In this document: positions 3,857-21,771 of the stretch, piece after piece
Numbering within the stretch: position 1 is the first letter of the stretch
Layout: every line of letters starts with the position of its first letter
Assembly (NCBI GenBank): GCA_964523905.1
Contig: CAZFYQ010000001.1
Span: forward strand, 40,718 to 104,717
DNA from: an uncultured Gammaproteobacteria bacterium
GTDB taxonomy: Bacteria; Patescibacteriota; Microgenomatia; Daviesbacterales; UBA10151
Length of the DNA stretch: 64,000 nt
Reading direction: 5' to 3'
Translations under genes and position numbers: made by a program
Notes under the pieces: model-generated
Seen by the model: only the letters and a program-made list of their open reading frames with translations
Told to the model about the DNA's origin: nothing
The model's database searches: none

Positions 3857-5063
3857 AGTGATTGCAGAAGCTTTTGATAATATGTTTATTAACAAGCTGC
3901 GTACCGGCTTGGCTGCTTTAGGCATTGTTATTGGAATCGGATCAGTGATAGCTTTGATCTCTTTAGGTCAGGCGACGCAGCAATCAGTACAGGATCGGAT
4001 CCAGGCTTTAGGGGCTAATTTATTAACAGTTAATCCGGGGGCACAAAGAACAGGGGCTGTTAGGGGAGCCGCCGGGGGGAACACGACTTTAACTTTGGAT
4101 GATGCAAATGCCATTAAAACCTCACCTACTGTCACTACTGTTTCCAATGTTTCTCCTGAATTTTCCAGAAGAACCCAGGTAGTAACCGGGGGAGCAAACA
4201 CCAATACTCAGGTGATTGGAGTTACTCCAGTTTACACTGAGGTACATAAAGTTACTCTGGACTCCGGTGCTTTTATCACTGACCGCGATGTTTTAGGGGT
4301 ATCCAAAGTAGCAGTGGTTGGTCCGCAGGTGGTAACTGATTTATTTAATGGAGTAAGTCCAATTGGACAAAGTCTTCGAATAACTGGACAAACCTTTACT
4401 ATCATTGGGGTAACTCAGTCAAAAGGAGGAACTGGTTTTGGCAATCAGGATGATGTTATTTATGTGCCTCTATCAACCGCTCAAAAACAATTATTCGGAG
4501 TAGATTATTTATCCTCAATTGCGCTGGAAGCTAAAAGCCCGGACGTGATGACTGATGCCCAAAATCAGGTGGGGTATTTACTACTTGGTCGTCACAAACT
4601 ATCTGATCCATCGCAAGCTGATTTTTCGATTTTTTCCCAACAGGATATTTTAAACACTGCCTCAGCTACCACCGGAACTTTTACGTCACTGTTGTCTGGT
4701 ATTGCCGCAATATCACTTCTGGTTGGAGGAATTGGCATTATGAATATCATGTTGGTAACAGTAACCGAGCGAACCAGAGAGATTGGACTTCGTAAAGCCT
4801 TGGGCGCTAAGAAGAAAATTATTATTACCCAGTTTTTAATTGAGGCGGTGATTTTAACTTTTACAGGCGGAATTGTGGGAATGGTGTTAGGGGTACTAAC
4901 CTCGTATATTATTGCTACTTTGACTCAAGCGCCGTTTATTATCTCTATCCAGGCCATTGTATTAGCCATTGGGGTGTCTGCGGGTATTGGAATTTTATTT
5001 GGTTGGTACCCGGCTAAAAGAGCCTCTGATTTACAACCAATTGAAGCACTGAGATATGAATAA
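3831..5063 (+). CDS. ABC transporter permease, FtsX/MacB-like
   Basis: N-terminal TM, large periplasmic domain, four C-terminal TMs typical of the FtsX fold; start likely M at 3831 or 3843, overlapping the ATPase end. Confidence 0.75.
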   Translation: MGEYMEYAEVIAEAFDNMFINKLRTGLAALGIVIGIGSVIALISLGQATQQSVQDRIQALGANLLTVNPGAQRTGAVRGAAGGNTTLTLDDANAIKTSPTVTTVSNVSPEFSRRTQVVTGGANTNTQVIGVTPVYTEVHKVTLDSGAFITDRDVLGVSKVAVVGPQVVTDLFNGVSPIGQSLRITGQTFTIIGVTQSKGGTGFGNQDDVIYVPLSTAQKQLFGVDYLSSIALEAKSPDVMTDAQNQVGYLLLGRHKLSDPSQADFSIFSQQDILNTASATTGTFTSLLSGIAAISLLVGGIGIMNIMLVTVTERTREIGLRKALGAKKKIIITQFLIEAVILTFTGGIVGMVLGVLTSYIIATLTQAPFIISIQAIVLAIGVSAGIGILFGWYPAKRASDLQPIEALRYE

Positions 5064-5510
5064 GTGTTTAGAAAGGGGGTGACTAAATTGAAAAATAATC
5101 CAATTTTAATAACAGTGGTAGTAGCTGTTATTGTAGGAGCAGTGGCATTTTTTGGCGGTATGCAATATCAAAAAATGCAACGAGCTTACTTGGCTGGCGG
5201 AACCGCTGGTAGAGCCGGTCGTTTTGGCCAAGCCGGAGCTAATGGTAATTTTAGACCAGTCAGAGGAGAAATTATTGCCTCTGATGACAAAAGTATTACT
5301 GTTAAATTAATGGACGGCTCCAGCAAAATAGTATTACTGTCGGGTAATGTAGCTATTACTGAAGCAACCAGTGCTGGGAAGACCGCCTTAGTTAATGGAA
5401 AGCAGGTGATGGTGTTTGGAGCAGCTAATCCAGATGGATCAGTTACCGCCCAAAATATCCAGTTAAACCCAACCATGGGTCGGCCAGGAGCTGGACAAGG
5501 AGGAAACTAG
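5064..5510 (+). CDS. hypothetical membrane-anchored protein, Gly-rich
   Basis: GTG start, single N-terminal TM, G/A-rich segments at both ends; no recognisable domain. Confidence 0.45.
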   Translation: MFRKGVTKLKNNPILITVVVAVIVGAVAFFGGMQYQKMQRAYLAGGTAGRAGRFGQAGANGNFRPVRGEIIASDDKSITVKLMDGSSKIVLLSGNVAITEATSAGKTALVNGKQVMVFGAANPDGSVTAQNIQLNPTMGRPGAGQGGN

Positions 5511-6055
5511 GGTTTTTGATATTCTGGTTTAACATCTGCAGAGAATTCTCTCAAAAGTTTTTGAATTTTGGGATCAATTACCACCGGGCAATATGAATTG
5601 GACTCTTTGTTCCGTTCATAATAGTCCTGGTGGTAACCCTCTGCTTTGTAAAATTTAGTAAAAGGTTCTAGTTTAGTGACAATTTGGCTTTTCAGTTTGC
5701 CCAAGGCTTGTAGATCTTTCATAGATTTCTCGGCAACCTGCTTCTGTTTTTCGTCATGATAAAAAATAGCTGAACGATACTGTGTACCAAAATCATTACC
5801 TTGTTGATTTAAAGTTGTTGGGTCATGAGTAGCCCAAAAAACCTCCAGGATTTTATCAAAGGAGATAACTTTGGGGTTAAATTCAATCTGAATCGCTTCG
5901 GCATGGCCACTGCCTCCGGAACTGACTTCTTCATAAGTGGGATTTTCAGTTAGCCCTCCGGTATATCCCGACATCACTGATTCCACCCCTTTAAGTCTTT
6001 TAAAAATCGCCTCAGTACACCAAAAACATCCTCCAGCCAACGTTGCAGTTTCCAT
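5507..6055 (-). CDS. msrA: peptide-methionine (S)-S-oxide reductase MsrA
   Basis: Active-site motif GGCFWCTEA near N-terminus; length 182 aa. Confidence 0.9.
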   Translation of the reverse strand: METATLAGGCFWCTEAIFKRLKGVESVMSGYTGGLTENPTYEEVSSGGSGHAEAIQIEFNPKVISFDKILEVFWATHDPTTLNQQGNDFGTQYRSAIFYHDEKQKQVAEKSMKDLQALGKLKSQIVTKLEPFTKFYKAEGYHQDYYERNKESNSYCPVVIDPKIQKLLREFSADVKPEYQKP

Positions 6056-7336: not shown

Positions 7337-8239
7337 ATGGCAGTATCTGCAAAACAAGTAGTGGTGACATCATTTCTGGTAGATTTGTTAGATTTAACCT
7401 CCAGTGTGGTGGTGGCTTTTATTTCCGGCAGTGTGGTAATGGTAGCGCAAACTTTGGAAGGAGCTGCGGATTTAGTTTCTTCCGGGATGTTAATTTTTGG
7501 ATTAAATCGGTCTTTAAGACATCCAGATAAAAATCATCCCTTTGGACATGGCCGAGAATTGTATTTTTGGACTTTAATTTCAGCTTTATTTACTTTTTCA
7601 GTCAGCGCCACCCTATCCTTTTATTTTGGTTGGCAAAGATTTTTAAATCCCAGTCCGGTTAGTAATATTCTCTGGGCAAATTTGGTACTAATCTTAACTG
7701 TCGCTACTAACGGTTATGCTCTTTTTTTAAGTATGCATCGGCTAGCTAGAAAAAAACACCAGCATTTAGCCCAAGTCTTTTTTAATTCTGATCTAATTGA
7801 AACCCGAGCCACTTTTATGTTGGATTTAATGGGTACTTTTGCTTCAATATTGGGTTTAGTAGCTCTACTCATTTATGCTTTCACAGGAGATATGCGCTTT
7901 GATGGAATTGGAGCCATGGCAATTGGGGTGACTTTGTCTTTAATGGCTTTTTTCTTAATTATTGGGGTCAGGGATTTACTGGTAGGGAAAAGTGCTGCCA
8001 AAGAAACTGAGGATAAAATAAAGCAAGCAGCGTTGTCTATAGAAGCAGTTAAAACTGTGACCAGACTTAGGACTAATCATATTGGGCCGGATCAGTTGCT
8101 GGTGGAACTTAGTATTTCAGTGAGAAGGGATTTAATTACCGGACAGATTGAAAAAATTATCAGTGAGGTAAAGCAAAAAATTAAAAGCCGGGTTAAAGAG
8201 GCCGAATTTATTCAAATTGAACTAAGGCAAAGCGATTGA
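7337..8239 (+). CDS. cation diffusion facilitator (CDF) family transporter
   Basis: Six TMs, HP..GHGR motif region, C-terminal cytoplasmic domain; typical CzcD/FieF architecture. Confidence 0.8.
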   Translation: MAVSAKQVVVTSFLVDLLDLTSSVVVAFISGSVVMVAQTLEGAADLVSSGMLIFGLNRSLRHPDKNHPFGHGRELYFWTLISALFTFSVSATLSFYFGWQRFLNPSPVSNILWANLVLILTVATNGYALFLSMHRLARKKHQHLAQVFFNSDLIETRATFMLDLMGTFASILGLVALLIYAFTGDMRFDGIGAMAIGVTLSLMAFFLIIGVRDLLVGKSAAKETEDKIKQAALSIEAVKTVTRLRTNHIGPDQLLVELSISVRRDLITGQIEKIISEVKQKIKSRVKEAEFIQIELRQSD

Positions 8240-8270
8240 CAGAGGCTGGCAAATTTGCTACTTTAAACTC

Positions 8271-8615
8271 ATGGAAAAATCCGTCCAAAAACTTAATTTT
8301 TTTACCAGCGCATTCTTAGGGATAATGGGATTTTCTTTAATCGGGGAATTGTTTATGGAAGATGACTGGATGGATAAGATTGATGATGGGATGTTTCTAA
8401 TTTTAGGAATTGCCGCGATCTTTTGGTATAAATCCAATGCTCTTAAAAAATCTATGGCGCCAATTATTTTAGTATTAATTGGGGTAGCGATAAAAATCTT
8501 TGCTATTTTTGTAGAAATCAAAGATAAAGAAGCAGTCGGTGATGATTTTGGAATTTTGTCAGCGTTGTTAATTACTTTGGTAGTTGTAATTTATCAATAT
8601 AGAAAACTCAAATAA
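8271..8615 (+). CDS. small hypothetical membrane protein
   Basis: 114 aa, four hydrophobic segments. Confidence 0.5.
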   Translation: MEKSVQKLNFFTSAFLGIMGFSLIGELFMEDDWMDKIDDGMFLILGIAAIFWYKSNALKKSMAPIILVLIGVAIKIFAIFVEIKDKEAVGDDFGILSALLITLVVVIYQYRKLK

Positions 8616-8675
8616 TTTTCCTTTCAGCTTTTTCTCAGACAATAATCGTTAGAATTAAACTATTAGTTTTTCCCC

Positions 8676-8957
8676 ATGACAAACTTACACAAATATATTA
8701 AGATGTTGGGTATGGCAAAAAAGTCTAAGGCAATTGAACTTGTTTTACTAAGCCTAATTTTTAGCTCCTTATTTACTGACAACACCAAGGCCTACCTTGA
8801 TCCCGGATCCAGCAGCTATTTGTTACAAATTTTACTGGCTGGATTTTTTAGTGTCTTACTAGCAATTAAAACCTTTTGGAAAAGGATCACTTTGTTAATG
8901 CAACAATTATTTGGATCTAAGGATAAGGCTAATGATGAAAAATCCAAAGCTCAGTAA
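8676..8957 (+). CDS. small hypothetical membrane protein
   Basis: 93 aa, two hydrophobic segments, K-rich tail. Confidence 0.45.
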   Translation: MTNLHKYIKMLGMAKKSKAIELVLLSLIFSSLFTDNTKAYLDPGSSSYLLQILLAGFFSVLLAIKTFWKRITLLMQQLFGSKDKANDEKSKAQ

Positions 8958-10308
8958 TCTTCACCCAGCTTCTTTTCGTGACAGCGACGGCTTTGTTTTT
9001 ACATCCCTTGGTATAATACTTCGTCAAGTTAATAACTCTTATAAAGAAAACTACGATTTATTAATGTCTTCTGGCTTATACAATAAATTGGTTGATAAGG
9101 GTTTATTAATTGCTCATCAAGAAGTCGGTCTAAACTTGGCTATCGATAAAGATGCATACAAAGTTATCCAGCCTCAGCAATTAGATTTTATTTCTTACCC
9201 CTATGAATGGTGTTTTAGTCAGCTCAAAGAAGCGGCTTTACTGACTTTGAAATTGCAGCTAATTGCTTTGGAGCACGGCATGAGTTTAAAAGATGCCTCA
9301 AGTTTTAATATTCAATTTGTGAATGGAAAACCAATCCTAATTGATTCTTTATCATTTGAGAAATTTGACGAAAAGCCTTGGGTGGCTTACCGCCAATTTT
9401 GTCAGCATTTTTTAAACCCCTTAATATTAATGAGTAAAATTGATCCGGGATTAAACAGATTACTATCAATTTATTTGGATGGAATTCCAGCTGAATTGAC
9501 AGCCAAATTATTACCGTTTTGGTATAAGTTAAATCCCAATATTTTTATCCATGTCCAATTACATTCAAAAGTAAAAAGCAAAGCAACTACTGGAAAAAAA
9601 CCAATTGCTTTTAGCAAAAATTCCTTGATTGGATTAATCGGTAGTTTAGAATCTGCGATTACCGGACTCAAACTAAGGCAGATGAAATCTTTTTGGAGTG
9701 GTTATATACCGGCTGACGATTCTTATACTAAAAGCGCTTTTAAAAATAAAGAGAATTTCGTCAAAAACTTTTTTGAACAAACTAGGGCGAATACAGTTTG
9801 GGATCTTGGTTCTAACACTGGTCATTTCAGTCGGTTGGTTGCAGGTAAAGATTCTAATATCGTGTCCTTTGATTTTGATCCTGTTTCTGTTGAGAGAAAT
9901 TATCAACTTTCAAAAAAATATAGTAATATTTTGCCTTTGGTGATGGACCTGACTAATCCTACCCCGGATTTAGGTTGGGCAAATCAGGAGCGTAGTTCAA
10001 TTTTAAAAAGAGGGCCGGTTGATTTAATTATGGCTTTGGCTTTAATTCATCATCTCTGCATTGGGGCTAATGTGCCGTTGGATAAAGTAGCCAAATTATT
10101 TTCCGATCTGACTCAGTATTTAATAATCGAGTTTGTACCAAAAGATGATCCACAGATCAAAGAAATGTTACTATTAAGAAAGGATAAATTTCTTGATTAT
10201 TCCCAGGTAAATTTTGAAAAAATATTTTCCAAATATTTCAAGATAACTAAAGTTAAAGAAATACCTGGAAGTTTGCGAACGTTATATTTAATGAAAACTC
10301 ATGAGTAA
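8932..10308 (+). CDS. class I SAM-dependent methyltransferase with N-terminal domain of unknown function
   Basis: C-terminal half has the Rossmann MTase motif I VWDLGSNTGHFS, an acidic post-strand-2 residue (SFDFD) and VMDLTNP; start likely at the Met pair 8932/8935. Confidence 0.6.
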   Translation: MMKNPKLSNLHPASFRDSDGFVFTSLGIILRQVNNSYKENYDLLMSSGLYNKLVDKGLLIAHQEVGLNLAIDKDAYKVIQPQQLDFISYPYEWCFSQLKEAALLTLKLQLIALEHGMSLKDASSFNIQFVNGKPILIDSLSFEKFDEKPWVAYRQFCQHFLNPLILMSKIDPGLNRLLSIYLDGIPAELTAKLLPFWYKLNPNIFIHVQLHSKVKSKATTGKKPIAFSKNSLIGLIGSLESAITGLKLRQMKSFWSGYIPADDSYTKSAFKNKENFVKNFFEQTRANTVWDLGSNTGHFSRLVAGKDSNIVSFDFDPVSVERNYQLSKKYSNILPLVMDLTNPTPDLGWANQERSSILKRGPVDLIMALALIHHLCIGANVPLDKVAKLFSDLTQYLIIEFVPKDDPQIKEMLLLRKDKFLDYSQVNFEKIFSKYFKITKVKEIPGSLRTLYLMKTHE

Positions 10309-11899
10309 ACTAAAAAAAATACATTACAAATTTCCATTGTATATTTTCTTTTTTCCCTGGTATTCAATACTTTTTTTATATAACAATAACTTTGTTAAAT
10401 TGCCGCTTAAGGTTGTTATTTTGCCGCTTTTGGTGATCACCATAATCTGTCTAGTATTCTGGTTGATTTTAAACTTATTTTTTAAAGGGTCAATTAAGGC
10501 AGGAATTGTAGTGGGGTTTTTGCTGTTAATTACTTTTATGTATGGGCCGCTGCATCAATTTGCCTATTTTGACGCTTTTAATATTGGGCCTGTTCCGATT
10601 GACTGGAGCTGGTTTTATACGATTCTCTCAGCACTTATAATGATTGGTTTAGTGCTTTTTTTAATCAGAGCCAAAAGAGAATTAGTACGTCTTAACAAAA
10701 TTTTAAACGTTGGAGGAGTGATCTTAATGATTTTGGTGCTGGTGCCATTAATTTACAATTACTCAAAAATTCATCTTAATTTTAACCAAAATTCATCTGA
10801 TCAAAGCGGAGACTCTGAAACAGTTTCCGGAACTAATGTTATAGATAAACCGGATATTTATTACATTATTCCTGATGATTACGGTGCTCCGCAAACAATG
10901 AAGGAAGATTATCAGTATGATGCCAGCAGTTTTACAAAATACTTAACTGATAAAGGTTTTTATATCGCAGATCAAAGTAAAACTAATTATCCCTATTCGA
11001 CTTTTATGATTGCCAGTGCTTTAAGTATGAATTATTTAAACACTCAGACCCAGCCAAAAATTAAAAATCAGCCGGGAGGAACAGTAATCAACAATATTAT
11101 CAATAATTCTAAAGCAGTGCATTTTCTTAAATCACAAGGATATAGTTTTTTTAATGTCGGTAGTTGGTATGATCCTTTAAGAAATAATGATTCAGCGGAT
11201 ATTAATTTTGTATATGATAATAAATTAAGACTGGATGAATTTTCCAATACCTTACTGCATAACACAATTTTTTATCCTTTAGTGCTTCGCTACTTTGGTT
11301 TATCCGGTCGGCCCAACCAAATTGCCAACATTAATTATCAATTTCAAGCTTTACAACAAATGCCCAGTCAAATCAGTCCAAAATTTGTATTTATTGACTT
11401 GTTAGCCCCGCATACTCCATGGATCTTTAACGAAAACTGTGACGTGGTGTATCATTTACAAAAAGATCCAGCGATTGTTAAATTCCTTCCAGAAGTTAAC
11501 TGTGTTAACAAAAGATTAATGACTGCCATAGATGCTATATTAAAAAATTCCAAAACCCCACCAATCATTATCTTGCAAACTGACGAGGGGGCCAAAGATG
11601 GTAATAATCAGGCTATTAAATATCCTAATAAAACTGGAGTAGTAGGTGGATTTAAAGGTTCATCAATAGATACCAATCTGGAAAGAGTAAGGATATTAAA
11701 TGCCTTTTATTTGCCCGGAAGCAGTAAGAATTTATTATATCCGGATATAACACCGGTTAATACATTCAGAGTAATTTTTAATGAATATTTTAATGCTAAT
11801 TTACCACTATTGCCGGATAAAGTTTATACGTTTGATGATTATGATTTGCTTTATAGATTTATATTTAATGATATTACTGACCAAGTTAAAGGTAAATAA
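10301..11899 (+). CDS. membrane protein with C-terminal alkaline-phosphatase-superfamily (sulfatase / LTA-synthase-like) domain
   Basis: Five N-terminal TMs followed by an extracytoplasmic domain beginning DIYYIIPDDYG, reminiscent of sulfatase/phosphoglycerol-transferase cores; 8-bp overlap with the upstream MTase. Confidence 0.4.
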   Translation: MSKLKKIHYKFPLYIFFFPWYSILFLYNNNFVKLPLKVVILPLLVITIICLVFWLILNLFFKGSIKAGIVVGFLLLITFMYGPLHQFAYFDAFNIGPVPIDWSWFYTILSALIMIGLVLFLIRAKRELVRLNKILNVGGVILMILVLVPLIYNYSKIHLNFNQNSSDQSGDSETVSGTNVIDKPDIYYIIPDDYGAPQTMKEDYQYDASSFTKYLTDKGFYIADQSKTNYPYSTFMIASALSMNYLNTQTQPKIKNQPGGTVINNIINNSKAVHFLKSQGYSFFNVGSWYDPLRNNDSADINFVYDNKLRLDEFSNTLLHNTIFYPLVLRYFGLSGRPNQIANINYQFQALQQMPSQISPKFVFIDLLAPHTPWIFNENCDVVYHLQKDPAIVKFLPEVNCVNKRLMTAIDAILKNSKTPPIIILQTDEGAKDGNNQAIKYPNKTGVVGGFKGSSIDTNLERVRILNAFYLPGSSKNLLYPDITPVNTFRVIFNEYFNANLPLLPDKVYTFDDYDLLYRFIFNDITDQVKGK

Positions 11900-11943
11900 C
11901 CTCTTTAAGGTTTTTCTCAGCTAATTTGCAGTATAATTTAGGC

Positions 11944-12621
11944 ATGAGAATACTGGTAGTTGAGGATGAACATAAAATTGCCAACTCAATTAAAAAAGGT
12001 TTAGAACAAGAGACCTATGCAGTGGATGTGGCTTTTACCGGTCAAGACGGATATGACATGTCTGCTAGTGAAGAATATGACTTGATAATTTTAGATGTTT
12101 TACTTCCCGGGATGAGTGGAATTGAAATCTGTCAGAAGCTTAGGCAGGAACAAAACCACACTCCGGTACTAATGTTGACTGCCAAAGGTCAAATAGAAGA
12201 TAAGGTTAGCGGTTTGGATGCCGGTGCAGATGATTATTTAACTAAACCATTTGCTTTTGAAGAATTGTTAGCCAGAATAAGAGCTCTAACCAGGCGTCCC
12301 AAAAATAGTATTGGAACCGTATTAAACTGCGAAGATTTAAGTTTAAATACCACCACCTATGAGGCCACCAGGGATGGGAAAATTATCAGTCTAACCAGCA
12401 AGGAATATGCCTTATTAGAATATTTACTGCGCCACAAAAACCAAGTCTTAACTCGGGATCAGATCATTAATCACATTTGGGATTATGATGCTGACGTGTT
12501 GCCTAATACGGTGGAAGTGTATATTGGTTATTTGCGAAATAAGGTTGACCAGCAATTTCCTGATAAAAAACCTTTAATCAAAACCGTGAGGGGGTTTGGT
12601 TATAAAATTAGTGGAGATTGA
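11944..12621 (+). CDS. OmpR-family response regulator
   Basis: Receiver domain (DD..D..K pattern; ILDVLLPGMSG) plus winged-helix output domain (LTSKEYALLEYLL..VLTRDQI). Confidence 0.9.
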   Translation: MRILVVEDEHKIANSIKKGLEQETYAVDVAFTGQDGYDMSASEEYDLIILDVLLPGMSGIEICQKLRQEQNHTPVLMLTAKGQIEDKVSGLDAGADDYLTKPFAFEELLARIRALTRRPKNSIGTVLNCEDLSLNTTTYEATRDGKIISLTSKEYALLEYLLRHKNQVLTRDQIINHIWDYDADVLPNTVEVYIGYLRNKVDQQFPDKKPLIKTVRGFGYKISGD

Positions 12622-12657
12622 CAACCTTGCCTTTTTGACTTTGTCAAAAACTTAAAA

Positions 12658-13653
12658 TTGATATTTATGTTTACCAAAGCGCGACTTAAATTAACTGCCT
12701 GGTATTTATTAATCATCATGTTGGTTAGTGTGGCTTTTAGCGTGGCAATTTATCAGGTGCTAAGTAGTGAACTAAGTAGAGTTGAAAGAATCCAGCGATT
12801 AAGACAGTTGGAAAGAAGATTTCAGCCAGCCATTGATCCGGAGGTAATGGAGGAAGAAAAAAATAGATTAAAGGTTATCTTGATCTTAATTAACCTGGGA
12901 GTTTTAAGTATTGCCGGTATTGCCGGGTATTTTCTGGCCGGTAGGACTCTTCAGCCGATTAAGCAAATGGTTGAGGAACAAAATCGCTTTATTACCGATG
13001 CCTCTCATGAACTGCGTACCCCAATAACTACGATGAAGACAGAAATAGAGGTTAATCTAAGGGATAAAAAAATCAGCAAGGAGTCAAAAAAACTACTACA
13101 GTCTAATCTGGAGGAAGTTAATCATTTGCAATTATTATCGGACAATTTGATCAGACTGACGCAGTATCAAAAAAGCAATCACAATATTAATTTTGATGAT
13201 GTTTCAATTAAAGAAATTACCAGTGAAGCTATTAAAAAAGTTGCTACTTTGGCTAAACATAAACATATCAAAATCCAAAAATCGGTCAAAGAAGTGGTAT
13301 TTAAAGGAGATAGACAGAGTTTGATCGAAATGCTGGTAATTTTTTTAGACAATGCCATTAAATATACTAAGAAAAATACCACTGTTAGTTTAATTGCTAA
13401 AGCGGTTGATGGTGATTTACTAATTACCATAGGAGACCAGGGGATTGGTATTGAAAGTAGAGACCTGCCTTTTTTGTTTGACCGCTTTTACCGGGTGGAT
13501 AAATCCCGTACGAAATCTGATGTGGAAGGATTTGGCTTGGGTTTATCAATTGCCAAACAAATAATTGAAAAACATGGAGGAAGAATTAATGTAGAAAGCA
13601 CCTTAAATAAAGGTACTACGTTTACCGTCATCTTACCGGTTAAAAACTTCTAA
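12658..13653 (+). CDS. sensor histidine kinase (two TMs, HisKA + HATPase_c)
   Basis: H-box DASHELRTPIT, N-box LDNAIKYT, G-boxes DQGIGI and GFGLGLSIA. Confidence 0.9.
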   Translation: MIFMFTKARLKLTAWYLLIIMLVSVAFSVAIYQVLSSELSRVERIQRLRQLERRFQPAIDPEVMEEEKNRLKVILILINLGVLSIAGIAGYFLAGRTLQPIKQMVEEQNRFITDASHELRTPITTMKTEIEVNLRDKKISKESKKLLQSNLEEVNHLQLLSDNLIRLTQYQKSNHNINFDDVSIKEITSEAIKKVATLAKHKHIKIQKSVKEVVFKGDRQSLIEMLVIFLDNAIKYTKKNTTVSLIAKAVDGDLLITIGDQGIGIESRDLPFLFDRFYRVDKSRTKSDVEGFGLGLSIAKQIIEKHGGRINVESTLNKGTTFTVILPVKNF

Positions 13654-13674
13654 GATTTTTTGGTAAGATAAAAG

Positions 13675-14172
13675 ATGCATATGAAAAAAATTCTGCTATC
13701 GATAACAGTTATTTTTAGTTTTCTATTTTATTCCTGGCACCAACGCACAGAAAGTTCTGATGAAGGCGTAGTTGTGGCTCCACCCCCTTCGGTAACTAGT
13801 ACACCACAGCCAACTAGTGCGCCGGTTTCCAATGGTCCTTTAGTTACCAATACTCCGCCCACATCAACTACAGCTCCAGCAAAAGGGCAATACAGGGACG
13901 GTCAATACACCGGCTCAGTGGAAGATGCTTTTTATGGACCATATCAAGTGAAAGCCATTGTTAGCGGTGGAAAAATTACCGATATCCATTTTTTACAAAC
14001 ACCCAATGATCGTCAGACTTCAATAGAGATTAATTCACAGGCCTCACCTTTGTTAAAACAAGAAGCCATACAAGTTCAAAGCGCCCAGGTGGATATTATT
14101 TCCGGGGCTACTCAGTCCAGCGAAGGTTTCCAAAGGTCGTTACAATCAGCTTTAAATCAGGCCAAAACTTAA
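13675..14172 (+). CDS. secreted/membrane-anchored FMN-binding domain protein (flavinylation substrate)
   Basis: Signal-anchor, P/T-rich linker, then FMN_bind-like domain ending in the ApbE flavinylation motif D-I-I-S-G-A-T (14090-14119). Confidence 0.75.
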   Translation: MHMKKILLSITVIFSFLFYSWHQRTESSDEGVVVAPPPSVTSTPQPTSAPVSNGPLVTNTPPTSTTAPAKGQYRDGQYTGSVEDAFYGPYQVKAIVSGGKITDIHFLQTPNDRQTSIEINSQASPLLKQEAIQVQSAQVDIISGATQSSEGFQRSLQSALNQAKT

Positions 14173-14176
14173 ACCT

Positions 14177-14905
14177 ATGAAACAAACTAAAATTTTAATG
14201 GGCATGCCAATTATTGTAGAGGTGGTTGATAAGCAAGTTAAAAAAGCTGATCTTAATGCGATATATGATTATTTTAAACTGGTTGATGAAAAATTCAGTA
14301 CTTATAAAAGTAGTAGTGAAATTAGCAAGATTAATGATTTAAGATTAATGATTAAAGATAGCAGTAGGGAAATGAGAAAGATATTTAAATTAGCCGAGCA
14401 AACGAAACAGCAGACTAATGGCTTTTTTGATATCCAAAGAAATGGCAGTTTTGATCCTTCCGGCATTGTCAAAGGTTGGGCGATTGATCAGGCGGCTAAA
14501 TTAATTAAGCAAAAAGGTTTTAACAATTTTTATATCAATGCTGGTGGAGATATTCAATCATCCGGGAAAAACAAATCCGGTAAAAACTGGACTGTTGGTA
14601 TTCGTAATCCCTTTAAGACAGCAGAGATTATCAAAGTAGTTACCCCAAGAGGCAAAGGAATTGCAACATCCGGGACTTATGAACGTGGCCGGCACATCTG
14701 GTCTAAGCAGCAGATTGAAGATATTGTTAGCCTGACTGTAATCGGGCCTAATATTTATGAGGCAGACCGTTTTGCGACAGCCGCCTTTGCCATGGGAAAA
14801 TCCGGAATTAATTTTATTGAACAGTTAAGTGGTTTTGAAGGATATATGATTGATAAGGCTGGGATGGCCACTTACACCAGTGGATTTGAAAGGTTTGTGG
14901 CATGA
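14177..14905 (+). CDS. apbE: FAD:protein FMN transferase (ApbE family), short form
   Basis: ApbE-like motifs FDPSGIVKGWA and YINAGGDI..GIRNP; 242 aa. Confidence 0.75.
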   Translation: MKQTKILMGMPIIVEVVDKQVKKADLNAIYDYFKLVDEKFSTYKSSSEISKINDLRLMIKDSSREMRKIFKLAEQTKQQTNGFFDIQRNGSFDPSGIVKGWAIDQAAKLIKQKGFNNFYINAGGDIQSSGKNKSGKNWTVGIRNPFKTAEIIKVVTPRGKGIATSGTYERGRHIWSKQQIEDIVSLTVIGPNIYEADRFATAAFAMGKSGINFIEQLSGFEGYMIDKAGMATYTSGFERFVA

Positions 14906-16389
14906 ATTTAATTGATGATTTTTTAAATGGCATCACCATGTATCGGCTGCTGTTTTATTTTTTGCTGATACTAGTAGCCTGGGCAGCCGGACTGGCTTTT
15001 TTTGGACTGGTACCATTTAATCCGCTGACTTTACTGGCCTCTGTAACTTTTCTGATGCTGGTGGGCTGGGTTACTAACACGATTTTTGCCAAGACTTTTA
15101 AAGCAGTGACTAATCTTGAATCAATTTATATCACCACTTTGATTTTAAGTTTAATTATTACCCTTAGTTTAGACTTACATCATTTAATTTTTATGTTTTG
15201 GGTGGCGGTGTGGGCCTCTGCCTCTAAATTTATCTTTGCTATTAAAAAGAAAGCTATTTTTAATCCGGCTGCTATTGGAGTTTATTTAACCGGCCTGGGA
15301 ATTGTCGGGTCGGCTTCCTGGTGGGTAGGAACTGCTTGGATGATGCCAGCGGTTTTAATTGGCGGGTTTTTAATCGTTAAAAAGATCAAACGCTTTGAGT
15401 TATTTTTTACTTTCATGGCAGTAGCTTTGGTGACGATTATTGGTTTAACCGCCATTAATGGCAATGTTGACTTATCAATTATTAATAAAATCTTTCTCGA
15501 TTCTCCAATATTATTTTTTGGGATGATTATGTTAACTGAGCCTTTAACTACACCGCCAAACAGAAGCTTACGTTTTGTCTACGGCGCATTGGTAGGGTTC
15601 TTATATGCGCCGCAGTTCCATTTGGGTAGTTTTAATACCACTCCGGAGCTGGCTTTAGTAATAGGGAATATTTTTTCTTATCTGGTTTCTCCCAAAGAGC
15701 GTTTGCTACTGAAATTAAAGCAGAAAATTCAACTTAGTCCGGATACTTTTGATTTCGTGTTCGGACTGGATGCGCCGATTAAATATACTGCCGGACAATT
15801 TATGGAATGGACGCTGAGCCAGAAAAACCCGGATACGCGGGGCTCTCGGCGCTATTTTACTTTGGCCTCAAGTCCAACTGAGGATAGTTTACGCATTGGG
15901 GTGAAGTTTTATCCGAATGGAAGCTCTTGGAAAAAGACTTTAATGGAAATGCCAATTGGTGGAGAACTGGTGGCTGCCCAAGTAGCAGGAGAATTTACTT
16001 TACCAAAAGACCCGATTAAAAAGCTGGTATTTGTAGCAGGGGGTATTGGAGTAACCCCTTATCGCTCGATTATCAAATACTTAATGGATAAAAAGGAGCT
16101 TAGGGATATTGTATTAATTTACTCAGTGAAAGCTGATGTTGATGCAGTCTATATGGATTTATTTAATCAGGCTGCCAGTAGCATCGGTCTTAGAAATATC
16201 GTTAATGTTAGTGATAGGACGGGTATGGTTACAGGGGAAATGATTGCCCGGGATATTCCGGATTTTAAAGAGAGGACTTTTTATTTGTCAGGACCTCATG
16301 GAATGGTGGACGGATTTGAGAAAACTCTGGGAGGTCTTGGAGTTCCTGGCGGACAAATTAAAACTGATTATTTCCCCGGTTATGCTTAG
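14902..16389 (+). CDS. membrane oxidoreductase: polytopic N-terminal domain fused to FNR-like FAD/NAD(P)H-binding reductase domain
   Basis: About 270 aa with seven predicted TMs, then FAD motif RRYFTLASSP (RxYS/T), NAD(P) motif GGIGVTP and C-terminal YLSGPHGM. Confidence 0.7.
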   Translation: MNLIDDFLNGITMYRLLFYFLLILVAWAAGLAFFGLVPFNPLTLLASVTFLMLVGWVTNTIFAKTFKAVTNLESIYITTLILSLIITLSLDLHHLIFMFWVAVWASASKFIFAIKKKAIFNPAAIGVYLTGLGIVGSASWWVGTAWMMPAVLIGGFLIVKKIKRFELFFTFMAVALVTIIGLTAINGNVDLSIINKIFLDSPILFFGMIMLTEPLTTPPNRSLRFVYGALVGFLYAPQFHLGSFNTTPELALVIGNIFSYLVSPKERLLLKLKQKIQLSPDTFDFVFGLDAPIKYTAGQFMEWTLSQKNPDTRGSRRYFTLASSPTEDSLRIGVKFYPNGSSWKKTLMEMPIGGELVAAQVAGEFTLPKDPIKKLVFVAGGIGVTPYRSIIKYLMDKKELRDIVLIYSVKADVDAVYMDLFNQAASSIGLRNIVNVSDRTGMVTGEMIARDIPDFKERTFYLSGPHGMVDGFEKTLGGLGVPGGQIKTDYFPGYA

Positions 16390-16649
16390 GGCAGGCTATT
16401 CAAAAGATCCTGCGAACTGCCTGGGTTAAATCTAATATGCGCTGTAGTGGCATTAGTAGTACAGTTCACACCTGAGCAGCTGACCGGTTGATTATTTTGA
16501 TCAGTCACCGTAAAAGACTGGGAAACATCGAATTCCGCCTTCGCTTTATGAGTTTGTTGTTGTCTGACCAGAATTACTGCTGCAACTAGTCCTAACAACA
16601 GTACTAAGATTAATCCTAAGGTCAGAATGTTTTTTCTAGTTAACTGCAT
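16386..16649 (-). CDS. small hypothetical membrane-anchored protein (last gene of giant-protein operon)
   Basis: 87 aa; N-terminal TM (LTLGLILVLLLGLVAAVILV), Cys-containing tail; 19-nt gap to the giant gene. Confidence 0.5.
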   Translation of the reverse strand: MQLTRKNILTLGLILVLLLGLVAAVILVRQQQTHKAKAEFDVSQSFTVTDQNNQPVSCSGVNCTTNATTAHIRFNPGSSQDLLNSLP

Positions 16650-16668
16650 ATTCTTAACTTATCATATT

Positions 16669-19600
16669 TTAAGGTGAAACTACAAACGGTATGCCAGTCC
16701 GATTATTAGCGGGATTATTATCATTGACTTGGTTATAAAAATCAGCGATGACTGCAAAACAATAATTACCTGCCTCAGTTGGAGTCCAGGAATTAGGGTA
16801 AGAGAAATGTTGGCTAGACCCAGGATTTAGCTGGTTGGTTGCCGGTATAGTAGAGATAAAAGTAGTGAAGCTGACCGTAGTATCACAAATATTACTTGGG
16901 TTGGAAGAACGAATTACTCCCAAGGCGGTAGTGGTTGGATTAAGCGCCACCGTACCTAAATTGGCTGTATCAGCCTCAAAACTGACTGGTTGCCCTACGG
17001 TTGGTGATTGTGGCGACAAGCTTAAATTTTCGGCAGCAATATCAGTAATAATAGAGGGTGCCGGATTAATAATAACCGGAGATGGTTCTGGTGTTGAAGT
17101 AGGAGGTGAATAAGGTCTCTGAAAGATTAAAGACCGGGAAATAGTTTGTTGCTGTCCGTTTTGATCAAGGTAAGTAATAGTCATTAAATATGAGGTATTG
17201 GCATTTAAATCAAGATCAAGACCAGAAGAATTGTTTGGATAAATTTCCTGGTCATTAACAGTGATTCTAAGTAATTGTTTTTGGTGGGTGGTAGGAGTGG
17301 TGAGTGTTGGTGTTGGGGTATTAGCACTTGGTGCGGAACCAGTGCAGACTAAGTTGCCACAAGTTAAAGTAACATTGGCATCACAAGTAGAGGTGATCTG
17401 GTTTTGGTAAGTACAACCATCTGTTGGAGCAGGACATGAAATGCTGCGACAATTGGGATGATTGCGAGACGGTGTCGGGGTCGGTGCGGCTTCTTCAATA
17501 ATTGGCGCGTTGGTTGGTACTATATTTCCACCTAACTGGTATTCGCAGCGCTTAAGAATAGTAGGTGCAGGATCACTGCCAAAAGTACCGTTGCCACAAA
17601 CATAAGTACCTTGGGCAAAGACTTTAGTTATAAATTGCCCATTAGCTCCAAAGCGGACTGTTGCATTACCCGGTATACTACAGTTTTCAAATTCATTACT
17701 ACAGAAAGTCCAACCAGTATCAGTTGGACTGGTAGTGGGGCTAACAGCCGGTCTTTGGAAAACTAAAGAGCGGGTGGCGGTTTGTTGATGGCCCTGGGAA
17801 TCAAGATAAGTGATTTCCATTAAATAGGCACTACTGGAATTTAAATTAAGATCAATTCCATTTGGATTTTGTGGATAAATTTGTTGTCCGTTAACAGTAA
17901 TACTAATTAATTGTTTTTGGTGGGTAGTACTGGTAGGACTGATAGTTGATGGTGCATTATTTTTCCAACTTCTCATTTCTTGGAAAGCTGGTTTAGGTGA
18001 GCCATTAGGGCTCATCAGTCCTAAATAGCAATACCAGCCAAATTCTGAACTGATTTGCTGCTGGTTACAGTTAACATCAGCCAATGAGACATAATTAATA
18101 GCGGCGATTGATTTTCCATTATTTTTTGCCTGATCAACCATTTGCCTTAAACGATTGATATAAGCAGATTGAGCATCAGGAGAGGCTGGGAAACTTTGCC
18201 AGGAAGTGCTAATCCACCCGGTCTCTGAGATGAATAAAGGTAGATTAGAACCGGATGAATCAATAATACTACTTAACAGGTTTGTGGGAATATTGTTAAT
18301 ATCACTGCCATAACTAAATTCCGGATACAAAGAGACTGCTAAGACATCCACTTTGTTATTAAAATCAGCCAGTTCCTGTCTTAAATCAGAATTGGCAGTA
18401 AAACTAACAGCCACTTGGGTATTACTGCTTACTGCTTTAATGGCATCATAGGCTTTGGGGTAAAGGGTATGAGCAAAATAATTATAATCAGTCTGGTTAG
18501 CGTTTTTATAAGTATTAACCTCCAGGCCAATCAGGAGATATTTTGGATGGTAAGTCCGAGCAATATCAACCATTGTATTAATAAAGGAGTTATTATCCGG
18601 ATTAGAATACTGGTTTTGGAAAGTCACAGGAGTGGAGTCACTGCAATGATCAGTTCCATCACTGGATGCCACCTTATTTCTGCTATTACAAAGAGGATCA
18701 AAGGCAATATATGTATCAAGTCCAGCATTTTTTGAATCGTTTACATCGGTGCTAATATCCGGATTATGTAAGTCATTCCAACTTCTTTGAATATAAGCCA
18801 AACTAGCAACATCGTTAGCGCTATTCCAGCCGGTTTGACCTGAAACACTAGTTCCGGGAGAAAAAAACTTGACACCTAATTTGAAGTTTACTGGTTGGGG
18901 ATTTGCTGGAGAAGTAGGATTAGGAGTAGGACTTGCAGCAGGAGTGTGAGAAGCTGAATTTGTTGCTGTATTAACCTGGCAGTTGGCAGTAGCAGTTGTT
19001 CCCCCTGATTTTACAGTCACTGTAGCTTGATAAGTACCGGGAATGGCATAGTCAACTTGAGCAGTTTTACCGTCAAGCCCGGAATAATAATGACTGGCAG
19101 GATCGCCGCTCCAGGAGTAATCATAGGTACCATTACCGGCAGTAGCATTGGCAGTCCAGATAACTGTATCAGCAGGAGTACCAAGTGGTCCAGGTTTGGG
19201 ATAGGCAGCAGAGCAAGTCACTTGAACTGGAGTCGTGCAAGCTGGAGTGACAAGTACGTGACTGGTGCCGTCAAATGATCCGGCAGGATTACCAGCCGAC
19301 ATAATATATTGATAACTGGTGCCGGAAACTAGATCCGGTGCTGCTCCGTCAAAACCGGAAAAATCAGCCGGATCGTTTTTGATAATACCGCTGGCAGCAT
19401 TATCAGTTGGCGGAATATTAGCGTAAGCATAATTATGGTCTACCCAGATACTGTCGTGATAACCATCAGGATTTTGTATAAAGCTATATGGTGACAGAGT
19501 TCTGACAATATAGACCGCGTCTCCTGAGGAAGGCCTTAAATTTAAACTAACTTTAGGAGTAGTGCCATCACAACTGACATCAACTGATACAGGAAACCCT

Positions 19601-21771
19601 CCCGGTACTCCACCACTATTAACCGGTGGAGGAATCTGGTTACCGGTAACAGGACTAGTGACAATTAAAGGGAAGTTAGTACAGTTATTTAATATATTAG
19701 GTTCAGAAACAAGATTATGATTGGAATCAGCGCAAACCCGTACTGAATATGCTCCAGGTTGAGAAACTGTCCATTGGCTACCTTCACTAACAGGTATTAC
19801 CTCACCACCATTTTGTCCATTACAAGCTGGAGGCTGAGTTGAAGCAAAGCCGGTAAAGAGCGCTCGTCCGGTTGGTATGGCATCTTTAGGGAAAGTACCC
19901 TTAAATACTGCAAAACTGGTTGTGAAACTATTACCAGAAATATTGGAAGCAATACAACCTGTATGAAGCGCGTTGACAATAGTAGCTGCAAAACTTAAGG
20001 ATTTTCCAGTGGTAATTTGTTTAGGATCTCCCGGAGTAGCAGTAATAACAAAGTCTCTAGGACTGCCGGTGTTTTGAACTGTCAGGTCAGGAAATGGTCC
20101 TTGAATTGGTCCACCGTTGCTGTAATAAACAGTGGGGGTTGGTGTAGTAGAGATGTTAGGATTTGGGGAAGTAATTGGGACTGAAGGGTTACCAGGAGTA
20201 GTAATTGTTTTAGTGACACAATTATCAGACTCATTTGATTCAGGTGATTGATTAGTATAATCAGCACAAGCTCGGACATTATATGTTGAGCCAGGATCTA
20301 ATGCACCAGTGGTTAAAGTATCATCTTTGGATTGTCCGGGTACTATTAGACCAACATTATCTAAAGGTTTAGCAGCTACAACCGTATTATCGCTGGCTTT
20401 ACTAACAGTCAATAATTCTGATGAATTTAATACTGGTTCTGCGTTGGGGGTTAAAGGATCTATAAAATGAGCAGAAAAAACCCATCCTTGATTATTATCT
20501 TCAGTAGGTTGATCAACTTGAGCGGTAAGATTTGGTAGGTTTGCATATTCTGCTCCTGTACACATTCCGATATCCCGATCTGCAAATACCCAGTTAGGGC
20601 TATGAACCCAAGGGTCTGCGGTAGAACCTGATTCAGATATCGTACGATCACCTACATTAAGCCCAACTGTCATATGAAGATGAACAAAGGCCTGTGAAAC
20701 CAGGTTACCTGCAATATGCCAGGATTGCTTGGTATCATTAACATTAATATCCTCATTAGGTGTAGTAATATTTTGATAAACATGAAGATACTGTAAAGTC
20801 CAAACCTGACCGTCTGGCGCATCAACTGAATGATAAACTCGTGCATAACCTGTACCAGCATCAAACCATCCAATGTATTGCCATGTCACTACATGTCCAT
20901 CAATGGTTGGTAAATATACCGGATCGCCGGCATTTTTAGCGATGCCAGATCCCTGATCTGTAATATCAATTGATTTGGCAGTTCGTATCAGGTCTCCGGC
21001 AGCATTTTTTACAGGATTACAAATCCCTTGGTCTGCAATATATTGGGGACTACAATGGCCACCAATACCGGTTCCAGCATTTATTCCGGAAGTTGCTGAA
21101 CACCCTTGACTGGTGAATCCTCCAAAAGTTGTGGGTGGACCATAAGAACCGCAACTTATTTTACCCTCAGGGACTGGACAGCTAAAGACATGACCAGTGT
21201 TTGTAGTTGGATTAGTCGGATTGGCAGGAGTGTTGGGATTAGTTTGAATTGGAATTTGGGTTGCACCACCTGGTTCTGAGTTATTAGCGGTAGTGACATT
21301 ATTGCTTCCTTGAACATTTAAGGGATAATTGGCAATTGTGCCAACCTGACCACTGGTATTTTCCGGTATCACTGCTAAGTTGTAGTTACCGCTACTAACA
21401 GTCTGCGGAATTTGATAAGTCCAAGTGCCAGCGCTATTAACCGGGACTGAGGCAGTTGTACCATTAGGTGCAAGAGTTAGAATTGCTTTACCTCCGGGAG
21501 TGCCGGTGCCTGTAATGCTGTCTGCTTGAGTGATTTGGTTAGGAGCAGTGGCGCTAAAATTACGTACTGAGTAAGTTTGAGGACTATGATGAAGTCGGGG
21601 TAGAATTTGATTCTTATAAACCCAGAAGCCGGCAGGAATAAGTATTACCAAGAGAAGTAAAATGGAAAGTTTAATGATAGTTTTTTTGGGGAGATTTTTA
21701 AACATTAGAAATGGTGAAGGTTCTGGAGGAGTGTAGTTGGGTGATATATAAACTTGCGGGTTAGTATCCAC
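16669..21771 (-). CDS. giant secreted multidomain surface protein (1700 aa)
   Basis: N-terminal signal-anchor and T/N/P/G-rich linkers throughout. Clan GH-A-like TIM-barrel region (LLIGLEVN ... FISETGW, about 17962-18894). PKD-like module (YDYSWSGDP..GTYQATVTV, about 18967-19209). Possible M23-like zinc-peptidase signature (YLHV ... FVHLHM, about 20572-21099). Twice-repeated 58-aa module near the C-terminus and a Cys-rich segment. Confidence 0.8.
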   Translation of the reverse strand: MDTNPQVYISPNYTPPEPSPFLMFKNLPKKTIIKLSILLLLVILIPAGFWVYKNQILPRLHHSPQTYSVRNFSATAPNQITQADSITGTGTPGGKAILTLAPNGTTASVPVNSAGTWTYQIPQTVSSGNYNLAVIPENTSGQVGTIANYPLNVQGSNNVTTANNSEPGGATQIPIQTNPNTPANPTNPTTNTGHVFSCPVPEGKISCGSYGPPTTFGGFTSQGCSATSGINAGTGIGGHCSPQYIADQGICNPVKNAAGDLIRTAKSIDITDQGSGIAKNAGDPVYLPTIDGHVVTWQYIGWFDAGTGYARVYHSVDAPDGQVWTLQYLHVYQNITTPNEDINVNDTKQSWHIAGNLVSQAFVHLHMTVGLNVGDRTISESGSTADPWVHSPNWVFADRDIGMCTGAEYANLPNLTAQVDQPTEDNNQGWVFSAHFIDPLTPNAEPVLNSSELLTVSKASDNTVVAAKPLDNVGLIVPGQSKDDTLTTGALDPGSTYNVRACADYTNQSPESNESDNCVTKTITTPGNPSVPITSPNPNISTTPTPTVYYSNGGPIQGPFPDLTVQNTGSPRDFVITATPGDPKQITTGKSLSFAATIVNALHTGCIASNISGNSFTTSFAVFKGTFPKDAIPTGRALFTGFASTQPPACNGQNGGEVIPVSEGSQWTVSQPGAYSVRVCADSNHNLVSEPNILNNCTNFPLIVTSPVTGNQIPPPVNSGGVPGGFPVSVDVSCDGTTPKVSLNLRPSSGDAVYIVRTLSPYSFIQNPDGYHDSIWVDHNYAYANIPPTDNAASGIIKNDPADFSGFDGAAPDLVSGTSYQYIMSAGNPAGSFDGTSHVLVTPACTTPVQVTCSAAYPKPGPLGTPADTVIWTANATAGNGTYDYSWSGDPASHYYSGLDGKTAQVDYAIPGTYQATVTVKSGGTTATANCQVNTATNSASHTPAASPTPNPTSPANPQPVNFKLGVKFFSPGTSVSGQTGWNSANDVASLAYIQRSWNDLHNPDISTDVNDSKNAGLDTYIAFDPLCNSRNKVASSDGTDHCSDSTPVTFQNQYSNPDNNSFINTMVDIARTYHPKYLLIGLEVNTYKNANQTDYNYFAHTLYPKAYDAIKAVSSNTQVAVSFTANSDLRQELADFNNKVDVLAVSLYPEFSYGSDINNIPTNLLSSIIDSSGSNLPLFISETGWISTSWQSFPASPDAQSAYINRLRQMVDQAKNNGKSIAAINYVSLADVNCNQQQISSEFGWYCYLGLMSPNGSPKPAFQEMRSWKNNAPSTISPTSTTHQKQLISITVNGQQIYPQNPNGIDLNLNSSSAYLMEITYLDSQGHQQTATRSLVFQRPAVSPTTSPTDTGWTFCSNEFENCSIPGNATVRFGANGQFITKVFAQGTYVCGNGTFGSDPAPTILKRCEYQLGGNIVPTNAPIIEEAAPTPTPSRNHPNCRSISCPAPTDGCTYQNQITSTCDANVTLTCGNLVCTGSAPSANTPTPTLTTPTTHQKQLLRITVNDQEIYPNNSSGLDLDLNANTSYLMTITYLDQNGQQQTISRSLIFQRPYSPPTSTPEPSPVIINPAPSIITDIAAENLSLSPQSPTVGQPVSFEADTANLGTVALNPTTTALGVIRSSNPSNICDTTVSFTTFISTIPATNQLNPGSSQHFSYPNSWTPTEAGNYCFAVIADFYNQVNDNNPANNRTGIPFVVSP
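17116..17289 (-). repeat. intragenic repeat copy 2 (58-aa module THQKQLLRITVNDQEIYPNN...LIFQR)
   Basis: Protein-level and DNA-level similarity (about 70%) to copy 1 at 17752-17925; shared DNA stretch attgtttttggtgggt. Confidence 0.8.
17752..17925 (-). repeat. intragenic repeat copy 1 (58-aa module THQKQLISITVNGQQIYPQN...LVFQR)
   Basis: See copy 2; copies lie about 615 bp apart inside the giant ORF. Confidence 0.8.

Follow-up and report, generated by a model that had tools for sequence, protein, structure and literature searches.

Flavinylation-associated gene clusters in which an NqrB/RnfD domain (PF03116) is fused to an NAD-binding domain (PF00175) have been named the 'NQR/RNF-like' system. 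The passages of Méheust et al. (2021, eLife, PMC8238504) that deal with it count 127 clusters, the criterion being an ApbE and/or FMN_bind gene within five genes and at least one protein with a signal or anchor. The type is reported there chiefly from the Candidate Phyla Radiation (CPR) and Actinobacteria (PMC8238504; PMC11334425). In the corresponding passages of Huang et al. (2024, mSystems, PMC11334425), an AlphaFold-multimer model of the Ktedonobacter racemifer pair has a membrane domain without the flavinylated threonine of NqrB/RnfD, and the flavin mononucleotide (FMN) of the outer subunit is proposed to sample the flavin site of the membrane subunit. The path put forward in these sources leads from NAD(P)H to flavin adenine dinucleotide (FAD), to the flavin site of the RnfD-like domain, to covalent FMN outside and on to an unknown acceptor (PMC8238504; PMC11334425). 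Here we describe a three-gene cassette (FMN_bind, ApbE and membrane/dehydrogenase fusion) in a 64-kb stretch of contig CAZFYQ010000001.1, referred to as the window. By its sequence the cassette belongs to this already named system, described from genome comparisons in 2021 and 2024.

The window cassette shares with the described clusters the defining fusion of an N-terminal NqrB/RnfD-like membrane domain and a C-terminal NqrF-like NAD-binding domain, the adjoining FMN_bind and ApbE genes (both directly upstream here), the N-terminal anchor of the FMN_bind protein, the missing flavinylated threonine of the membrane domain, and the proposed one-way flow from NAD(P)H to the outside. PF00175 lies on the same polypeptide, the surrounding genes form a flavinylation cluster, the threonine is lost, and homology to NqrB/RnfD is evident despite a Pfam miss; unlike the defined members, the window fusion fails the PF03116 test used in the published work. 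In our view the genes probably specify a flavin-only electron conduit across the membrane, of the NQR/RNF-like kind and with two subunits, together with a dedicated ApbE-type transferase and a two-component regulator. A preliminary description of this DNA had proposed a minimal conduit from NAD(P)H to an extracytosolic flavoprotein. That reading is supported and coincides with the model given for the cluster type in the published passages, although the existing name and system had been overlooked.

Results

Five tightly packed genes run in the same direction on the forward strand between 11944 and 16389, as judged from the open reading frame (ORF) list and Pfam. The gaps between them measure 36, 21, 4 and -4 nt, and the five genes probably form one transcript, an operon. 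Three consecutive cassette genes directly preceded by an OmpR-type response regulator and histidine kinase pair had been noted in the preliminary description; all were located as stated and confirmed by Pfam, and the range it assigned (11926-16389) takes in the two-component genes too.

The last of the five genes (14902-16389, forward strand) encodes the fusion protein of 495 aa. Profile, profile-profile and fold comparisons identify residues 1-268 (14902-15705) as an NqrB/RnfD-like membrane domain of about ten helices. Residues 269-495 (15706-16389) form a cytoplasmic FNR-type FAD/NAD(P)H-binding domain (PF00970, E 1.5e-5; PF00175, E 2.1e-8), with FAD_binding_6 and NAD_binding_1 spanning residues 270-472. 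A direct Pfam scan of the 269-aa membrane domain gave no match even at E<=10. PF03116 is annotated on 66 of its 120 closest homologues, and the close homologues, from Levybacteria, Daviesbacteria and other Patescibacteria, are 52-68% identical over their full length. A membrane-domain profile built from 17 sequences matches Azotobacter RnfD (8ahx_D) at E 4e-5, and hhalign pairs residues 141-258 with residues 222-334 of E. coli RsxD at 92% probability. The AlphaFold (AF2) model of the domain has a pLDDT of 81 and about ten helices. When this model was submitted to Foldseek, the 15 best PDB matches were all RnfD/NqrB chains (TM-score 0.58-0.70, probability 1.00; E 1e-5 to 7e-3), and these were the sole significant ones. 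The next matches, at E ~1, were urea transporters and Amt/Rh proteins; urea and ammonium transporters are distant structural relatives of NqrB/RnfD. The membrane domain is a divergent NqrB/RnfD domain and not a new fold. Where the preliminary description had counted seven helices, the model has about ten in an RnfD/NqrB arrangement, and of the outcomes it had foreseen for a profile search, the RnfD/NqrB-like one was obtained, neither a novel domain nor an unrelated transporter family having emerged.

Alignment with RsxD locates the main departure from canonical RnfD. The FNPA motif of the fusion (residues 120-123) pairs with FNPA of RsxD, and WVGTAW (W141) pairs with W222. Because both landmarks align, the FNPA-to-WVxxAW stretch between them can be compared directly: it comprises about 17 residues in the window fusion and about 97, including SQAT187, in RsxD. 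The outer loop of about 80 residues that bears the flavinylated threonine of RnfD (Thr187 in RsxD) is lost from the fusion. The fusion protein contains no [ST][GSA]A[ST] site elsewhere, and a cytoplasmic flavinylation site sought among its invariant serines and threonines was not found. Histidine occurs only at positions 93, 94, 240 and 466, and the fusion has no cysteine; all three cassette proteins contain zero Cys. The absence of a four-His heme pattern and of an SGAT site in this protein, as first described, was borne out. The cofactor of the membrane domain had been called unclear; a prediction does exist in the published passages, namely that the FMN of the partner subunit docks there. 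Conserved polar residues within the membrane are N59, N71, E73, K109, E213 and E249.

The best solved relatives of the FNR domain are the FAD domains of NqrF (E 2e-15), and Foldseek returned FNR-type dehydrogenases, for example the SpNOX dehydrogenase domain, flavohaemoglobin and NqrF. The FNR part carries no 2Fe-2S domain. Its motifs RRYFTLASSP (316-325), GGIGVTP (380-386) and GPHGM (464-468) are all present in the gene to which they had been assigned. Foldseek with the full-length protein gave FNR-type matches only, SpNOX included; the NOX-like reading that this could suggest was rejected, since the membrane domain alone matches RnfD/NqrB and lacks the histidine pattern.

The first cassette gene (13675-14172, forward strand) encodes a signal-anchored FMN_bind protein of 165 aa (PF04205, E 1.5e-8). 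The protein opens with MHMKK, followed by a hydrophobic helix, a Pro/Thr/Ser-rich linker and an FMN-binding domain of 80 aa. Within that domain lies a D-x-x-(S/T)-G-A-(T/S) motif, as found in ApbE substrates. Here it reads DIISGAT and occupies residues 140-146, with Thr146 (codon 14110-14112) as the predicted FMN attachment site on the basis of motif position and homologue conservation. The motif had been described as the end of the protein; it is present and stands about 20 residues short of the C-terminus. Across 24 aligned homologues Gly144 and Ala145 are invariant, Ser143 is nearly so, and either Thr or Ser stands at position 146; 23 of the 24 keep the SGA(T/S) site, and a few others carry TGAT or SGAS variants. 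The window FMN_bind protein is accordingly a predicted ApbE substrate, as far as motif and conservation can tell. A failed profile search together with a missing SGAT threonine in homologues had been named as grounds for abandoning the interpretation, and neither was encountered. The family profile matches the solved FMN domain 8p2a_A at E 9e-25. This structure comes from a study of multi-flavinylated Streptomyces azureus and Clostridiaceae proteins, which were flavinylated on co-expression with ApbE (PMC10339131; review PMC12052999).

The FMN_bind partners have a positively charged N-terminal tail and a strongly hydrophobic helix, many of them also a Pro/Thr/Ser linker, and the charge bias agrees with an N-in/C-out topology in 44 of 47 homologues. 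When the family was compared with E. coli RsxG by hhalign, nothing significant was obtained outside the SGAT motif, and specific RnfG orthology is not claimed. Twin-arginine translocation (Tat) was rejected as a general export route for these subunits, most of which have KK or KR and not RR. A spirochaete partner (locus L070, 5830-6228) has a twin-arginine-like signal, QFRRTAAAMASAAALLLAG...AFA, also written MKHNGQFRRTAAAMASAAALLLAGAGGAFA/AP; among the partners seen, it alone would make export of a pre-flavinylated protein by Tat plausible.

The second cassette gene (14177-14905, forward strand) encodes a short, leaderless ApbE-type FAD:protein FMN transferase of 242 aa (PF02424, E 3.5e-39). 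It aligns with the solved ApbEs of E. coli and Salmonella except for about 50 residues, chain residues 104-163 having no counterpart. The KGW, GGD, TSG, R-G-x-H and D-R-x-x-T motifs are invariant across 24 cassette ApbEs, so that both the ApbE fold and the conserved FAD, Mg and catalytic motifs are found in the window protein. Because the catalytic motifs are conserved, the enzyme is probably active. The preliminary description had recognised the short FAD:protein FMN transferase correctly and had overlooked its missing export signal. The N-terminal residues MKQTKILMGMP already form the first strand of the ApbE fold, and the protein contains no cysteine. An upstream extension was ruled out by an in-frame stop 8 codons ahead of the ATG.

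The lack of a leader is a family trait. Among 67 cassette ApbEs (that of the window and those of 66 related loci) no N-terminal hydrophobic segment, signal peptide, membrane helix or lipobox was found, and the leaderless state is common to both ApbE types, of about 247 aa and about 290 aa, that occur beside the RnfD/FNR fusion. The signal peptide or lipobox of ApbEs that serve outside substrates is thus absent here. Canonical ApbEs that act on periplasmic substrates are secreted as lipoproteins, and cytoplasmic substrates are the only ones known for cytoplasmic ApbEs (review PMC12052999). The passages of Méheust et al. (2021) and Huang et al. (2024) retrieved with the terms signal peptide and cytosolic ApbE make no mention of a leaderless ApbE. 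Four options may be considered: flavinylation before export, a second, secreted ApbE encoded elsewhere, cytoplasmic flavin handling, and leaderless secretion. A fusion of FMN_bind and ApbE through frameshift or read-through was rejected, as the two frames differ here and their relation varies among loci.

A scan of species-representative genomes yielded 80 related loci (labelled L002-L081) from Patescibacteria, Chloroflexota/Ktedonobacteria, Mesorhizobium/Kaistia, spirochaetes and Actinobacteria. The order FMN_bind, ApbE (~247 aa) and fusion is found in about 50 of the 80, in at least four phyla, and in these the ApbE reading frame usually extends into the beginning of the fusion gene, as it does in the window. 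The same cassette is present in two loci from Ktedonobacteria, L015 and L027, whose fusions are 47-48% identical to that of the window. A more distant group from Saccharibacteria and Actinobacteria has an ApbE of about 290 aa and a second FMN_bind type ending in SGAS. In a library of 1.8 billion proteins the membrane domain recovered 592 clusters (50% identity) at E<=1e-30, most of them about 500 aa long, i.e. fusions. The family is considerably larger than the 127 clusters reported in the passages cited above, partly because the Pfam criterion misses such proteins; similar loci would therefore be under-counted in the published set.

The probable operon opens with an OmpR/PhoB-family response regulator (11944-12621, forward strand; Response_reg E 7e-33, Trans_reg_C E 2e-27). 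The mechanically called ORF (11926-12621) starts at TTG 11926, and ATG 11944 (MRILVVEDE) is the likely true start. Among NCBIfam models the regulator comes nearest to RppA (247.5 bits, cut-off 250) and to the CopR/CusR heavy-metal subfamily (243 bits, cut-off 279); each score falls just short of its cut-off, and each alignment starts at ORF residue 7. The sensor histidine kinase that follows (12658-13653, forward strand; HisKA E 3.5e-11, HATPase_c E 3e-27) has two N-terminal hydrophobic segments separated by a short loop and reached no NCBIfam equivalog cut-off. Close orthologues of the response regulator adjoin the cassette in L002 (E 1e-97) and L077 (E 2e-101), and orthologues of the kinase do so in L002, L077, L059, L049, L070 and L074. 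Of the 80 related loci, about 20 have a histidine kinase close to the cassette and about 17 an OmpR-type regulator; the regulators stand on either side of it. We infer that the two-component system regulates the cassette. In the stretch 11897-11946, after the stop of the upstream gene, there is a weak hairpin (AACCT-CTTT-AAGGTT) followed by a T run. A TATAAT stands only 6 nt ahead of ATG 11944, a spacing that suggests an operon transcript with a very short leader or none; this feature was passed over by the consensus scan, and a sigma-70 and terminator scan of 8000-17000 gave counts not above those of shuffled controls.

The search for respiratory genes applied Pfam to about 56 of the 58 ORFs in the window that are 120 aa or longer, leaving aside two antisense ORFs inside other ORFs. 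No cytochrome, quinone-biosynthesis, Nqr/Rnf, Fe-S, second ApbE, Tat or flavin-transporter genes were detected among these ORFs of the 64-kb window, and the earlier statement that quinone, cytochrome, Nqr and Rnf genes are missing nearby was upheld. The window does encode glycolytic enzymes, a 2-hydroxyacid dehydrogenase and a sortase, which fit a fermentative, monoderm-like CPR organism.

A block of HlyD, ABC ATPase, MacB-FtsX permease and DUF5666 secreted-protein genes lies directly beside the cassette in five CPR loci (L005, L068, L010, L009 and L016). The same block recurs in L004, L045 and L002, and across these loci it often comes with the two-component system. In the window it occupies 1934-5510, 8 kb upstream of the flavin cassette. 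The link to this MacB-type ABC system and that to the two-component system are both absent from the passages of Méheust et al. (2021) and Huang et al. (2024) found by the targeted terms signal peptide and cytosolic ApbE. The window ABC block is separated from the cassette by several genes, among them those of MsrA, a GH63-like enzyme and a CDF transporter. Those between the block and the two-component genes include MsrA (5507-6055, reverse strand), the CDF cation-efflux protein (7337-8239, forward strand) and a weak MerC-like membrane protein (8271-8615, forward strand). MsrA/MsrB, VIT1 and NRAMP genes are each found near the cassette in about three related loci. As neighbours, MsrA, CDF, MerC-like, VIT1 and NRAMP proteins are possible clues to the acceptor or signal.

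The response regulator is immediately preceded, still on the forward strand, by genes for a 465-aa protein with a weak methyltransferase match only (8911-10308) and a 532-aa multi-helix membrane protein without a Pfam match (10301-11899), which overlap by 8 nt. At the other end two reverse-strand genes converge on the cassette. An 87-aa anchored protein (16386-16649) overlaps the fusion-gene stop by 4 nt, and beyond it lies a 1700-aa predicted surface protein (16669-21771) with an N-terminal anchor, Big_13, GH53-like and CARDB domains and internal repeats of about 90 aa ('HQKQL..ITVN.Q.IYP'). Farther away (37390-44219), a MASE1-PAS histidine kinase (39239-41173) and a pair of single-domain response regulators (41175-41927) stand between two P-type ATPases; together these genes make up a second signalling and ion-transport cluster of the window. 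Accessory genes unusual for a small CPR genome are those for a bacterial type IB topoisomerase (45220-46251, reverse strand) and for an ice-binding-like protein followed by a sortase (48182-49842, forward strand).

Discussion

The proposed conduit would work as follows. NAD(P)H would reduce the FAD of the cytoplasmic FNR domain, and electrons would then, on the model of the half of Rnf that leads from RnfC through RnfD to RnfG, cross the membrane through the fused RnfD/NqrB-like domain, probably by way of a non-covalently bound flavin. From there they would reach the FMN predicted to be held covalently on Thr146 of the membrane-anchored FMN_bind subunit, which is predicted to fill the site vacated by the loss of RnfD's own flavinylated loop. 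The outer FMN would in turn reduce an extracytosolic acceptor, for which a metal ion (Fe(III) or Cu(II), for example), O2 and a redox enzyme of the envelope are candidates. Such a path would amount to the RnfC-RnfD-RnfG branch run outward, with an NqrF-like dehydrogenase fused in RnfC's place and no return branch. In a fermentative CPR bacterium without a respiratory chain, the conduit would also re-oxidise NAD(P)H.

The cofactors, the physical complex, the direction of electron flow and the acceptor are points that we infer. A metal-ion acceptor is weakly hinted at by the CopR/RppA-like regulator, by the CDF gene here and by VIT1 and NRAMP in a few loci. The FMN protein of S. azureus, a relative of the cassette FMN_bind protein, reduces O2 (review PMC12052999) and gives a faint indication of O2 as acceptor. 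Equally slight is the pointer to an envelope-repair enzyme given by the nearby MsrA and by MsrA/B in a few loci.

Several observations weigh against the conduit as proposed. PF03116 is undetected by Pfam on the window fusion, and the FMN_bind subunit is detectably no nearer RnfG than generic FMN_bind domains are. The neighbouring genes for MsrA, the CDF transporter and the MacB-type ABC system give only weak hints to the acceptor. Literature searches, over all years and from 2022 onward, found no biochemical or experimental work on members of the NQR/RNF-like family. The ApbE is leaderless in all loci examined and its substrate is predicted to face outward; the maturation step of the published model is therefore unexplained.

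One answer would keep the function of the conduit and change only its assembly: the FMN_bind protein would receive its flavin from the leaderless ApbE in the cytoplasm and would be exported after that, as holo-protein or as a flavinylated chain, so that no FAD export would be needed. We hold this variant to be possible, with the balance tilted against it. All 67 cassette ApbEs lack an N-terminal hydrophobic segment, the conserved catalytic motifs make an active enzyme probable, no second ApbE or flavin exporter is encoded within the 64-kb window, the spirochaete partner of L070 carries its twin-arginine-like signal, and cytoplasmic ApbEs do exist, for cytoplasmic substrates (review PMC12052999). 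On the other side, a secreted ApbE could be encoded elsewhere in the genome. Most partners, moreover, combine KK or KR with a strongly hydrophobic anchor, which is typical of co-translational insertion by Sec and the signal recognition particle and not of Tat, and we know of no case in which Sec exports a chain that is already flavinylated. The leaderless state and the loss of about 50 residues of canonical ApbE could also mean that the protein does not act on FMN_bind at all and handles flavin in the cytoplasm for the fusion, as an FAD pyrophosphatase or as an FMN loader of the RnfD-like site; the outer subunit would then be flavinylated by another enzyme or not at all. The ApbE frame runs into the fusion start in most loci, which suggests translational coupling, and Ftp of T. 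pallidum, an ApbE-family protein, reportedly has FAD pyrophosphatase activity. We regard this reading as improbable, given that the sole conserved ApbE target motif of the cassette sits, nearly invariant, on FMN_bind, that the transferase motifs are invariant, including the equivalents of the catalytic His and the Mg-binding Asp/Thr, and that the ApbE gene directly follows the gene of its presumed substrate.

A third reading would make the membrane domain an ion or solute channel and not an electron path, with the FNR domain regulating transport or energising ion movement. NqrB/RnfD proteins, which are implicated in Na+ translocation, have a fold in common with urea and ammonium transporters; the conserved polar intramembrane residues listed above could be read in this way, as could the urea transporter and Amt/Rh matches, although these stand at E ~1 and the significant fold matches are to RnfD/NqrB only. 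The obligatory linkage to FMN_bind and ApbE points instead to a redox function, and the fusion to an NAD(P)H dehydrogenase domain mirrors the logic of RnfC-RnfD and NOX, which leaves a channel very improbable.

On current understanding, CPR bacteria (Patescibacteria) live by fermentation and have no electron-transport chains. A self-contained flavin conduit from NAD(P)H to the outside would be one of the few possible redox links of these organisms with their surroundings or hosts. The system type is known as a prediction only, and the window locus adds a well-resolved CPR example, shows that the Pfam-based definition given in the published passages misses proteins like its fusion, and draws attention to how often a two-component system of CopR/RppA-like type and a MacB-type ABC exporter accompany the cassette. 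The uniformly leaderless ApbE is the one element that a specialist might not expect. It tentatively raises the idea that extracytosolic flavoproteins are flavinylated first and exported later, or that a trimmed ApbE has a new cytoplasmic role, a proposal that we think has the smaller share of the likelihood. If true, either would remove the need for FAD export and could explain how minimal-genome CPR bacteria build an external redox module. Cultivable carriers of the cassette (Mesorhizobium, Dictyobacter and Ktedonospora) are open to direct tests.

Further systems close to the cassette are the RnfC-RnfD-RnfG branch of Rnf and Na+-NQR. The cassette has in common with them the RnfD/NqrB fold with its FNPA and T(E/D)P-x-T motifs, an outward FMN_bind subunit on one helix, an NqrF-like dehydrogenase domain and the chemistry of ApbE-dependent flavinylation. 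It differs from them in several respects. No RnfA/B/C/E or NqrA/C/D/E genes were found among the window ORFs analysed, there are no Fe-S clusters (0 Cys), the covalent-FMN loop of RnfD is deleted, the dehydrogenase is fused and not separate, and the FMN_bind subunit is nearer to free-standing FMN domains (8p2a) than to RnfG. There is likewise no return path to the cytoplasm and therefore no semicircular flow or obvious energy coupling. The NOX/ferric-reductase proteins, such as SpNOX of Streptococcus pneumoniae, follow the same logic of a membrane domain fused to an FNR-type dehydrogenase, and the dehydrogenase domains superpose. The cassette lacks their six-helix di-haem ferric-reductase domain and four-His pattern; PF01794 gave no match, and the membrane domain alone gave no NOX/ferric-reductase fold match. 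Listeria-type flavin-based extracellular electron transfer (Ndh2, EetA/B, PplA and FmnB) also uses an extracytosolic ApbE-flavinylated FMN_bind carrier in a monoderm-like envelope, flavinylation being predicted in the present case, and a weak NCBIfam match to PplA was obtained in the window cassette. Ndh2, a quinone, EetA/B and an ECF flavin transporter are all absent from the cassette; FmnB is a secreted lipoprotein, and the cassette, in contrast, has a leaderless ApbE and a single fusion protein as its electron route.

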